Shown here piece by piece: positions 23,063 through 25,079 of a DNA stretch of 64,000 nucleotides (position 1 is its first letter; every line of letters begins with the position of its first letter). The position numbers were made by a program, and so were the translations under genes. The stretch is from a virus (taxonomy: Duplodnaviria > Caudoviricetes). Location of the stretch: the IMG/VR virus record IMGVR_UViG_3300042350_003801; one strand, given 5' to 3'. The notes beneath the pieces were generated by a model. It worked only from the letters and a program-made list of their open reading frames with translations, was not told the DNA's origin and made no database searches.

Positions 23063-25079
23063 TCAACCAATAGTTGGGGCTTTTAGGGCAATTTCTTGAG
23101 TAGAAACTGCAGCCAAATCTACACTTGACCCATAAGTTTACCATTCTTATGGAGTGGACTATATCATCACCATTGAAGGTGTCGGACGCTTATTCCTGTT
23201 ATTAAGGGAACTATATCCCTCAGGTAGTCTCTGAAGTTTCCTTGAGTGTACTCAAGGCTCACCTGCTGATTGCCCGTGTTTTTTTTGGGGGGTTTCCAGC
23301 AATTCATCCGATGTTTCATCTATCAGTTTCCTAATAGAGCCACTAGATTTTCTAATGGAAAGTTGTGTGCGTTCCTTTCGTGCATCACTTCCATACCAAG
23401 TCCGGCTTTGTTAAGAATATCCGCCCAAGTAGGAATTACTCGGTTTTGACTATCAACAATGGACTGGTTAAAATTAAATCCGTTGCACTAGACCCATAAG
23501 TTTACCATTCTTATGGAGTGGACTATATCTTCATCCCAGTAGGATGTCGGACGCTTAAACCTGTTATTAAGGAAACTCTATTCCCCAGGTAGTCTCTGAA
23601 GTTTCCTTGAGTGTACTCGAGGCTTACCTGCTGATCATCCATTTATGGAGGACTTCCAGCAATTCATCCGATGTTTGCCGTCAAATTGCTTTAACGGAAC
23701 CCCAATTGAGGTTAAATGCCATAGTGCTAACACCAAGAGCAGTAAACCAAATACCAACTACTGGCCATGCGGCAAGAAAGAAGTGAAGTGAACGTGAGTT
23801 GTTGAACGATGCATATTGGAAGATAAGACGACCGAAATATGAATGTGCCGCAACAATGTTATAAGTCTCTTCTTCTTGACCGAACTTATACCCATAATTT
23901 TGGGATTCAGTTTCGGTTGTTTCACGAACAAGGCTGCTAGTGACTAGTGAACCGTGCATCGCTGAGAAAAGACTTCCTCCGAAAACACCCGCCACGCCCG
24001 CCATATGAAACGGATGCATCAGGATGTTGTGTTCTGCCTGGAATACCAACCAATAGGCAGAACGGGAACCTATGTTTCCATAAGGATTGGACTATCTCAT
24101 AATTAATAGAAATTACTATTAATCTCGGGCGCTGATTCTGGTTATTAAGAGGGCTACACCTCTCCAGTAGTCTCTACACTTTACTCGAGTGTACTCAAGT
24201 CTTAGCACGGTATTAGCATATCTATAAGACTTAGCTTTCGCCGTTTTCACCCGATTTATACTACACATTGGTTTAGTTTATGTAGTTAAAAGTTCCACTA
24301 ATCCCAAGGGGCATCGCATCTGAGAATGAACCTTGACCGAAGGGGTAGATTAGGAATACGGCAGTTGCAGCAGCTACGGGAGCACTGTAAGCAACCATAA
24401 TCCAGGGACGCATACCTAGACGATATGAAAGTTCCCACTCACGACCCATGTAGCAGTAGATGCCAATGAGGAAGTGAAATACGATGAGTTGAAATGGACC
24501 CCCATTGTAGAGCCACTCATCAAGACTTGCAGCTTCCCAGATTGGGTACAGATGCAGCCCGATAGCATTTGAACTCGGAATAACAGCACCAGAGATGATG
24601 TTGTTACCGTACATCAAAGACCCAGCAACTGGTTCTCTAATCCCGTCGCAACTTCAAATAAACAACCATATCATAAGACTTAGGTTATTGCAGATTACTC
24701 TGTGAAGTTTGGACCATATCTTCACCCTTTATACAAAGGGGCTGGGCGCTCTAGTCGGTTATTAAGCAGTCTCAACTGCTCCGATGGCCTCTGAACCTTC
24801 CTCAAGTACACTTGAGGCTTGGCTGCTGATTGCCTTTCGGTTTCCAGCAATTCACCCAGTTTCGTCAATACTCTTACGAGTAGGGGACACCGATTAGTTA
24901 ATGTCTACGGGAGGTGCGGCAATAAATGCAAGAATAAAACAGATGGTAGCAGTTAATGCTGTTGGAATAAGTAGAACGCCAAACCATCCCACATATAAAC
25001 GATTGTTCGTTGAAGTAACCCAGGAACAAAAGTCATTCCAGACATTACTTTGTGAACGTGTAGCAATTGTAGCAGTCAT
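23063..25079 (-). CDS. psbA: Photosystem II D1 protein in five exons: 25079-24901, 24648-24280, 24050-23709, 23485-23355, 23121-23063 (1080 nt, 359 aa)
   Basis: Joined exons give continuous D1 ([41 protein letters not shown]); every 5' exon ends in U and every intron ends in G. Confidence 0.97.
23122..23354 (-). ncRNA. Group I intron 4 of psbA (233 nt, in codon L341)
   Basis: P AATTGCTGGAAA, Q AATCAGCAGG, R CTTCAGAGACTA, S GATATAGTCC; P1 pairs exon CCAU with GUGG. Confidence 0.93.
23486..23708 (-). ncRNA. Group I intron 3 of psbA (223 nt, in codon L297)
   Basis: AATTGCTGGAAG, ATCAGCAGG, CTTCAGAGACTA, AAGATATAGTCC; P1 pairs exon AACCU with GGGGUU. Confidence 0.93.
24051..24279 (-). ncRNA. 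Group I intron 2 of psbA (229 nt, in codon M183)
   Basis: AAAACGGCGAAA, AATACCGTGCT, GTGTAGAGACTA, GAGATAGTCC; terminal G. Confidence 0.92.
24649..24900 (-). ncRNA. Group I intron 1 of psbA (252 nt, in codon I60)
   Basis: AATTGCTGGAAA, AATCAGCAGCC, GTTCAGAGGCCA, AAGATATGGTCC; P7 changed on both strands (GGCCA/TGGTC). Confidence 0.93.

Follow-up and report, generated by a model that had tools for sequence, protein, structure and literature searches.

The IMG/VR virus record IMGVR_UViG_3300042350_003801, a stretch of 64,000 nucleotides (nt) that we call the window, carries on its minus strand a psbA gene for the photosystem II protein D1 (23063..25079), which consists of five exons and four group I introns that are free of open reading frames (ORFs). 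Exon 1 (24901..25079; codons 1-59 and two bases of I60) is followed by intron 1 (24649..24900; 252 nt), which lies in codon I60 at site 60.2 (nt 179), sites being given here as codon.phase. Exon 2 (24280..24648; codons 60.3-183.2) leads to intron 2 (24051..24279; 229 nt) in codon M183 (site 183.2, nt 548), exon 3 (23709..24050; codons 183.3-297.2) to intron 3 (23486..23708; 223 nt) in codon L297 (site 297.2, nt 890), and exon 4 (23355..23485; codons 297.3-341.1) to intron 4 (23122..23354; 233 nt) in codon L341 (site 341.1, nt 1021). Exon 5 (23063..23121; codons 341.2-359 and stop) completes a spliced coding sequence of 1080 nt, which specifies 359 amino acids (aa) plus stop. The 5' leader of the gene contains, just upstream of the start codon, a PhotoRC-II RNA motif of the phage type (25116..25203, minus strand; 56 bits against an Rfam gathering score of 39).

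These borders come from a custom splice-aware protein-to-DNA aligner, which allows introns in any phase and was blind to the coordinates of an earlier note on the same DNA, and the introns were additionally located with Rfam. The earlier note had placed introns of 252, 229, 223 and 233 nt in codons I60, M183, L297 and L341; the blind alignment returned the same four lengths at sites 60.2, 183.2, 297.2 and 341.1, each with U before the 5' splice site and G as the last intron base. At these lengths there is a single frame-preserving set of junctions with this property. The search with group I models that the note had proposed as a check gave exactly four matches to RF00028 (group I intron) above the gathering score of 50 bits, all on the minus strand (24688-24910, 67.2 bits; 24068-24338, 74.3 bits; 23494-23718, 78.5 bits; 23130-23364, 85.6 bits). 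The open frames between the matches encode pieces of D1, and the piece from exon 2 (24273-24653) matches residues 60-183 of solved D1 chains in the PDB with E = 2.5e-75. DNA contigs of relatives furthermore skip exactly 223 nt between 23485 and 23709, so that homology supports the borders assigned to intron 3 and its site proves to be polymorphic.

Removal of the introns yields the intact D1 of 359 aa that had been predicted, and all 13 positions checked in the spliced product are kept (Y161, D170, E189, H190, H198, H215, S264, H272, H332, E333, H337, D342 and A344). In the usual numbering of D1, these positions cover the YZ tyrosine, the histidines of P680, Fe and QB, the Mn4Ca ligands and the CtpA site A344. 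The ratio of non-synonymous to synonymous substitution rates (dN/dS) of the exons in the spliced frame is 0.04-0.07 against nine relatives, with a value of 0.059 at dS 0.78 against the closest of them, the contig L113; judged by these ratios, purifying selection acts strongly on the exons when they are read in the spliced frame.

The inserts themselves have the anatomy of ribozymes. In each of them, P1 is formed by the final 4-7 bases of the exon and an internal guide close to the 5' end of the intron, with a U.G pair at the splice site, and the bases just upstream of the guide pair with the next exon to form P10 (3, 6, 3 and 7 base pairs (bp) in introns 1-4). The terminal base is G in all four, and the P, Q, R and S elements, which the earlier note had recognised along with the U|...G| rule, can be aligned in all four as well. 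An alignment of 42 ORF-less psbA introns, taken from the window and related contigs, gave 33 pairs with RNAalifold, 24 of which are kept through changes on both sides. Since the P7 pseudoknot is beyond RNAalifold, pairs were also counted separately, with the partner column slid by 1-3 positions as a control; helices P3-P8, including P7, are 87-100% paired across the 42 introns versus 4-74% in the slid controls. All of these core helices, with P7 built from the R and S elements, form in each of the four window introns. Compensatory changes are visible in single introns, too: a U-A pair of P7 has become C-G in intron 1, and P4 of intron 2 has been rewritten from UGCUG/CAGCA to ACGG/CCGU. According to the Rfam alignment, all four introns contain a 34-nt insert between the R element and the 3' strand of P3, a subgroup IA feature that folds as a covarying 5-bp hairpin. 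On sequence evidence, the window introns are thus group I ribozymes of the IA type. None of them (223-252 nt) contains an endonuclease ORF, and none therefore is a mobile intron with a homing endonuclease gene of its own.

As a side observation, the P7.1/P7.2 module of the aligned introns comes in two common versions, CCTGAGGG...CCCTTAATAACAGG or GGTGGTTT...GATGTAATACAC, with others in a few introns (alignment A2, columns 226-262). The two versions are spread across insertion sites and are not sorted by site, so that the ribozymes are mosaics that arose by recombination between introns.

ORF finders see this gene only as fragments, and introns 2, 3 and 4 each have one non-canonical pair in a core helix, as might be expected of a decaying pseudogene whose inserts are dead intron relics and from which no D1 is made. 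This explanation is at odds with a spliced frame that is open over 359 codons and keeps every ligand residue, with a dN/dS of 0.04-0.07, with Rfam scores far over the cut-off and with compensatory changes that maintain the helices. The kept D1 frame, the covarying cores and the substitution ratios together leave very little room for a dead gene, and they imply that the transcript loses its introns.

The window derives from a divergent T4-like cyanomyovirus of freshwater lakes. Its baseplate wedge gene gp6 (phrog_219, E = 1.8e-192) shares 55-56% identity with the counterparts in Synechococcus and Prochlorococcus myoviruses, and the window also carries a terminase-like ATPase, a UvrD-type helicase and many small ORFs on one strand; psbA aside, no near DNA match to the window was found among 50,697 deposited phage records. 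Six lake-water runs with six study codes, four of which may be the source sample itself, contain at least half of the words sampled from the 2.3-kb psbA stretch. From X11, a run of another study than the likely source, contigs without a single mismatch cover 23224-23520, 23589-23879, 23858-24480 and 24582-25031 and together span every exon-intron border, so that the arrangement is no assembly artefact.

A chimeric assembly, or DNA of a cyanobacterium or an algal chloroplast mistaken for that of a phage, might be suspected from the metagenome-type sequence and from the chloroplast relatives of one intron. We nevertheless regard such an error as hardly credible, in view of the independent contigs that tile all borders, the six runs that contain the DNA, the T4-like neighbour genes and the phage-type PhotoRC-II leader. 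The distribution of intron 1 argues in the same direction: its pattern was found in 73 metagenome contigs and in a single one of 185,579 species genomes. This genome match (L130, JAURGL010000231.1) is a 610-bp contig in a metagenome-assembled genome (MAG) of Vulcanococcus sp., in which a group I intron and, at 77.9 bits, a PhotoRC-II leader were recognised. As the leader is of the phage type, the contig is a stray phage psbA fragment that was binned into a cyanobacterial MAG, and the scan of the 185,579 species genomes gave no sign of intron 1 in host chromosomes. The presence of the fragment in this MAG hints at the host group; our guess at the host is a freshwater picocyanobacterium of the Cyanobium/Vulcanococcus type.

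Relatives of the four introns in other contigs (labelled L here) speak for mobile elements. The 60.2 introns of L105, L096 and L102 share 88-90% identity with intron 1. In L101, L057 and L107 the introns at this site are longer (713-719 nt) and encode a 157-aa single-motif LAGLIDADG protein; up to the point where this ORF is inserted, ~195 nt from the 5' end, intron 1 is 80-87% identical to them. Intron 2 and its counterpart in L113 share 95.6% identity, and its relatives at site 183.2 can carry ORFs as well, either for a LAGLIDADG protein (L019, L089) or for an HNH protein with a zinc ribbon (L024). In deposited phages, no close relative of intron 1 or intron 2 was found. Among the eight other 297.2 introns, seven share 81-91% identity with intron 3 (that of L026 91%), and the one of L102 shares 76%.

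Intron 4 has a composite ancestry. Over positions 39-233 it shares 82-88% identity with 297.2 introns from other contigs, against 79% with intron 3 of the window itself; its first 38 nt, which hold P1, P10 and the guide, are unrelated to 297.2 introns and specific to the site. The combination of a 297.2-type core with an unrelated 5' end identifies intron 4 as a 297.2 ribozyme with a new guide, now located 131 nt downstream of the 297.2 site in the mRNA. Introns at 341.1 also occur in L113 (92% identical), L122/L124 (86%), L129 (87%) and L143. L113, which is the closest relative of the window gene (~89% DNA identity), has introns at 183.2, 331.2 and 341.1 and none at 297.2; intron occupancy thus changes between close relatives.

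How an intron without its own nuclease gene may spread is illustrated by the cyanomyovirus S-PM2, whose psbA group I intron and free-standing endonuclease F-CphI constitute a case of collaborative homing according to later accounts (PMC6083498, PMC5931967) of Zeng et al. 2009. Both phages have ORF-less IA-type introns of ~210-250 nt in psbA and a nuclease-like gene directly downstream, and the core of window intron 4 is ~87% identical to the S-PM2 intron over ~125 nt. They differ in that S-PM2 has a single intron at 335.0 (nt 1002), whereas the window has four and none at that site, and in that the window lacks an F-CphI homologue and has a downstream ORF from an unrelated, GIY-YIG-like family. 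A tblastn search with F-CphI found ~25 loci, none in the window, and in ~20 loci with a 335.0 intron a gene of the F-CphI type (Endo VII) comes next after psbA, which is the S-PM2 arrangement; both this intron and this gene are absent from the window.

The downstream ORF of the window (22156..22983, minus strand; 275 aa), a candidate free-standing homing endonuclease with a predicted GIY-YIG-like N-terminus, a helix-turn-helix and a Cys-rich C-terminus, begins 80 nt past the psbA stop. Its family comprises 42 clusters at E <= 0.001, with 64-89% identity among near-full-length members, and lies directly 3' of psbA in the window, L122, L125, L128 and L129, which is every locus with enough sequence. 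The neighbours on the far side vary (transaldolase and 6PGD, a LOG-like gene, or a terminase-like gene). Every carrier has a psbA intron within nt 1008-1021, namely at 341.1 in the window, L122/L124 and L129, at 337.0 in L125/L126 and at 338.0 in L127/L128. As in collaborative homing, a candidate nuclease gene thus adjoins the intron-bearing psbA and is linked to it across genomes. The PHROGs family phrog_314 ('homing endonuclease') matches the ORF with E = 1.4e-4; BLASTP gave no similarity between it and the intron-encoded ORFs of related loci. In a structural model the helix-turn-helix is clear (Z ~7), and the catalytic domain of I-TevI is the sole fold other than a helix-turn-helix among the structural matches listed. 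Y34/Y36, Y48, R75, E93 and N110 are candidates for the GIY-YIG residues. The protein could thus be a nuclease of the I-TevI kind, encoded outside any intron, whose target would lie in the 3' part of psbA and would be protected by the introns at that place; for this we would give just under even odds.

We therefore favour, with a probability of about 0.85, a functional psbA with four ribozyme introns that are best read as selfish mobile elements at conserved psbA sequences, with help in trans for intron 4. The anatomy, the junctions, the core covariation, the purifying selection and the family relations of the introns are observed here, and splicing, mobility and nuclease activity of the downstream ORF are inferred. 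Self-splicing would have to remove four introns from the transcript before normal D1 can be made, and mobile introns would accumulate in psbA at highly conserved sequences. Introns 1, 2 and 3 are members of site-specific families, in which endonuclease-bearing kin are known for intron 1 (LAGLIDADG) and intron 2 (LAGLIDADG or HNH). Intron 4 goes back to a 297.2 ribozyme that was copied and acquired a new internal guide for the target in codon 341. Introns that lost their nuclease gene, or never had one, could spread only by means of a nuclease supplied in trans, and the probable helper of intron 4 would be the GIY-YIG-like ORF directly downstream of psbA, similar to collaborative homing.

Several observations weigh against this explanation or parts of it. 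Besides the non-canonical pairs in introns 2, 3 and 4, they concern the putative nuclease, whose link with introns at 337-341 comes from five lineages. Pfam does not annotate its family and recognises no GIY-YIG domain in the ORF. The model, which was predicted from 22 family members and comprises an N-terminal alpha/beta domain, the helix-turn-helix and a Cys-rich tail, reaches a mean predicted local distance difference test score (pLDDT) of 68. Its residues 32-113 superimpose on the GIY-YIG catalytic domain of I-TevI with Z 5.9 and a root-mean-square deviation of 3.0 over 78 of 92 residues, which is below the level that excludes chance. The best Foldseek rows against Swiss-Prot, which include two Neurospora GIY-YIG intron endonucleases and UvrC, are weak (E = 0.03-0.15), and against the PDB Foldseek gave no match at E <= 0.001, with the helix-turn-helix domain alone being recognised.

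The RNA data belong to the same side of the balance, as no RNA run contains the DNA of this phage, and two freshwater metatranscriptomes gave psbA contigs of relatives or hosts only. The sole informative RNA contig, of 1131 nt, comes from the freshwater metatranscriptome X1 and aligns with 23772-25204 of the window, with 96% identity over the PhotoRC-II leader and exon 1 and ~86% in exons 2-3. Stretches of 334 and 359 nt in the window correspond to only 82 and 130 nt in the contig, which is thus short by exactly 252 and 229 nt and represents a psbA transcript of the phage type that lacks introns 1 and 2. It stems, however, from a relative whose DNA may never have had these introns, and because intron-less homologues give the same joints, border joints in contigs of relatives cannot prove splicing; the contig is consistent with splicing, not proof of it. 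The jump in identity along the contig suggests, as an aside, recombination or gene conversion near the intron-1 site.

The introns could also be of use to the phage, if light-, redox-, temperature- or Mg-dependent splicing of all four tuned the production of phage D1. The earlier note had suggested such a regulatory gate for light, temperature or Mg. There is precedent for it in the light-dependent splicing reported for the single S-PM2 psbA intron and in the four psbA introns of Chlamydomonas, which are said to be differentially spliced in the light (PMC5931967). The selection on the ribozyme cores would be needed for a gate as well, yet it does not discriminate between the two explanations. 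Evidence against a gate is provided by the free variation of occupancy among relatives, where L113 does without intron 3 and has an intron at 331.2, others skip intron 3, and the number of introns ranges from one to at least eight, and by the homing-endonuclease genes in relatives with the same introns. Variable occupancy and endonuclease-bearing kin form the pattern of selfish gain and loss, not that of a conserved regulatory device, and we accordingly consider regulation of this kind, which is proposed by analogy, to be unlikely.

Multi-intron phage psbA genes of this kind proved to be common in environmental sequence data. The earlier note knew of no other phage psbA with four introns, and this uniqueness is refuted by three to at least eight introns in many viral and metagenome contigs; the survey of viral psbA that it suggested found the four sites of the window again in relatives, but not the rarity of four-intron genes. 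A search with an intron-core pattern detected more than 118 viral contigs, and ~40 of the loci fetched contain psbA. In viral and metagenome contigs, ~17 psbA insertion sites could be mapped: 60.2, 77.2, 93.0, 106.2, 137.0, 167.1, 183.2, 186.1, 190.0/191.0, 216.0, 251.0, 297.2, 331.2, 335.0, 337.0, 338.0 and 341.1, of which 186.1, 190.0 and 191.0 are less certain placements. The commonest is 335.0, the S-PM2 site. The aligner mapped four introns in L105; there are five each in L168 and L186, at least six in L129 and L163 (six Rfam matches each), seven mapped introns in L143 and at least eight in L102 (6822-11183), where an HNH-bearing intron missed by Rfam adds to eight Rfam matches. Among 31 full-length genes with a site-179 intron, a sample in which intron carriers are over-represented, single introns occur in 11 genes, two in 12, three in one, four in three, five in three and seven in one.

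Neighbouring introns can be separated by micro-exons of only 16 nt (331.2-337.0, HERNA), 19 nt (335.0-341.1) or 13 nt (337.0-341.1), which were seen among L102, L143, L129 and L122 (4325-4834). Exons this short between two ribozymes pose the question of how the P1 and P10 helices of neighbours avoid interference.

A cultured freshwater cyanomyovirus, S-SRM01 (NC_070963, L001, 2944-5346), turns out to belong to the multi-intron phages. Three introns interrupt its psbA: one of 910 nt at 93.0, which holds an HNH gene, one of 209 nt at 251.0 and one of 207 nt at 335.0. The paper on this phage mentions a single psbA intron. The record lists two partial D1 genes and a 'homing endonuclease', which shows, together with Photo_RC fragments in JGI/ENA calls on relatives, that gene callers break such genes, in line with the prediction of the earlier note that the gene of the window would be mis-annotated as a pseudogene. 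With 80.7% identity over 60% of the query, the S-SRM01 gene is the closest deposited psbA, and it resembles that of the window in having several introns and a PhotoRC-II leader; it differs in having none of the four window sites and an F-CphI-type gene downstream.

Outside psbA, orf142 of Staphylococcus phage Twort has three group I introns, and td, nrdB and nrdD of T4 have one each. These self-splicing introns resemble those of the window in their IA type, in their P/Q/R/S core and in their location in phage genes that are essential or highly conserved. With four introns in a single gene, and up to at least eight in related contigs, the psbA genes exceed to our knowledge the Twort case. The literature we searched, whose coverage is that of one collection and no proof of absence, contains no description of a multi-intron phage psbA. 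The elements are thus of a known kind, group I introns in cyanophage psbA, in a form that we did not find in the literature. This form combines many introns per gene and many sites with the retargeting of a ribozyme, with another type of candidate helper nuclease, and with an overlap with chloroplast introns in both site and sequence.

Multiple group I introns in one psbA gene are familiar from green-algal chloroplasts, with four introns in Chlamydomonas reinhardtii, ten in Oedogonium cardiacum, four group I introns and one group II intron in Floydiella, and further ones in Ulva (PMC2442088, PMC2997540, PMC10151680). Shared sites and a LAGLIDADG protein at site 179 are further common features, whereas the chloroplast genes belong to an organelle and not to a cyanobacterial virus, and the algal introns are mostly 0.3-1.8 kb long and often carry ORFs, unlike the small and ORF-less introns of the window. 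Published tables number chloroplast psbA sites by the preceding nucleotide and list introns at 179, 276, 384, 408, 525, 548, 570, 645, 754 and 898 in Oedogonium, at 276 in Floydiella and at 179 and 750 in Ulva. Six phage sites coincide exactly with these: 60.2 (nt 179, window intron 1; Oedogonium Oc.psbA.1 and Ulva), 93.0 (nt 276; Oedogonium and Floydiella), 137.0 (nt 408; Oedogonium), 183.2 (nt 548, window intron 2; Oedogonium Oc.psbA.6), 216.0 (nt 645; Oedogonium) and 251.0 (nt 750; Ulva). The window sites 890 and 1021 were not found in the algal tables compared.

At two of the common sites the type of endonuclease agrees as well, with a single LAGLIDADG protein at 179 in phages, Oedogonium and Ulva, and an HNH protein at 276 in phages and Oedogonium. 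The phage LAGLIDADG protein of site 179 has homologues in a member of the Trebouxiophyceae (51% identity, E = 3e-34) and in Ulva meridionalis (57%, E = 1e-32). The contig that encodes the former (L121; 149,840 bp) carries ycf4, atpB, atpE and a split psbA, and its chloroplast intron maps to 60.2. Over its first 87 nt it shares 86% identity with window intron 1 (E = 1e-23), which itself is ORF-less; BLAST gives no alignment for the 3' half of the ribozyme. At site 548 the chloroplast link is positional only, with no named algal homologue for the HNH protein of L024 (183.2). On the basis of the six identical sites and the homologous ribozyme and LAGLIDADG protein at 179, we tentatively propose that freshwater cyanophage and green-algal chloroplast psbA draw on one pool of mobile group I introns and homing endonucleases, a serious possibility rather than a probable one. 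If this is true, such elements cross between a bacterial virus and a eukaryotic organelle, phage psbA with its up to at least eight introns and micro-exons of 13-19 nt would be a major reservoir for them, and ribozyme retargeting, as from 297.2 to 341.1, would be one route to new sites.

Other genes of the window were noted in passing. A TnpB-like ORF of 536 aa (17751-19361, plus strand) near the terminase-like gene contains OrfB_IS605, HTH_OrfB_IS605 and a Cas12f1-like TNB, and matches phrog_506 (transposase, E = 5.5e-49). The match to a terminase large subunit (Terminase_6N; phrog_5989, E = 2.6e-48) is limited to an ORF of 312 aa (20132-21070, minus strand). The ORF of 197 aa at 19478-20071 (minus strand) was checked as a possible C-terminal, nuclease half of a terminase and is not recognisable as one. 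The relative L129 has the same short terminase-like form (275 aa), and the gene may be a split, a truncated or a second terminase-like gene. A giant ORF of 3554 aa (634-11298, minus strand) adjoins the gp6 gene; its product is presumably a protein of the virion or its fibres.

Among auxiliary metabolic genes, phage psbA is the textbook case, and viral ecology makes wide use of it as a marker. If many freshwater phage copies contain several introns, gene callers, marker pipelines and surveys based on the polymerase chain reaction would miss or truncate them or mislabel them as pseudogenes, as the record of S-SRM01 illustrates. The psbA locus furthermore offers a natural series for the spread of group I introns, which includes ribozymes with and without an endonuclease gene, a retargeted ribozyme and adjacent candidate helper nucleases. 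An exchange of introns between phages and plastids is directly testable through the exact coincidence of sites and the homology at site 179. Finally, a phage in which four obligatory splicing steps would precede the synthesis of D1 may serve as a concrete system for probing light-regulated splicing of phage introns.

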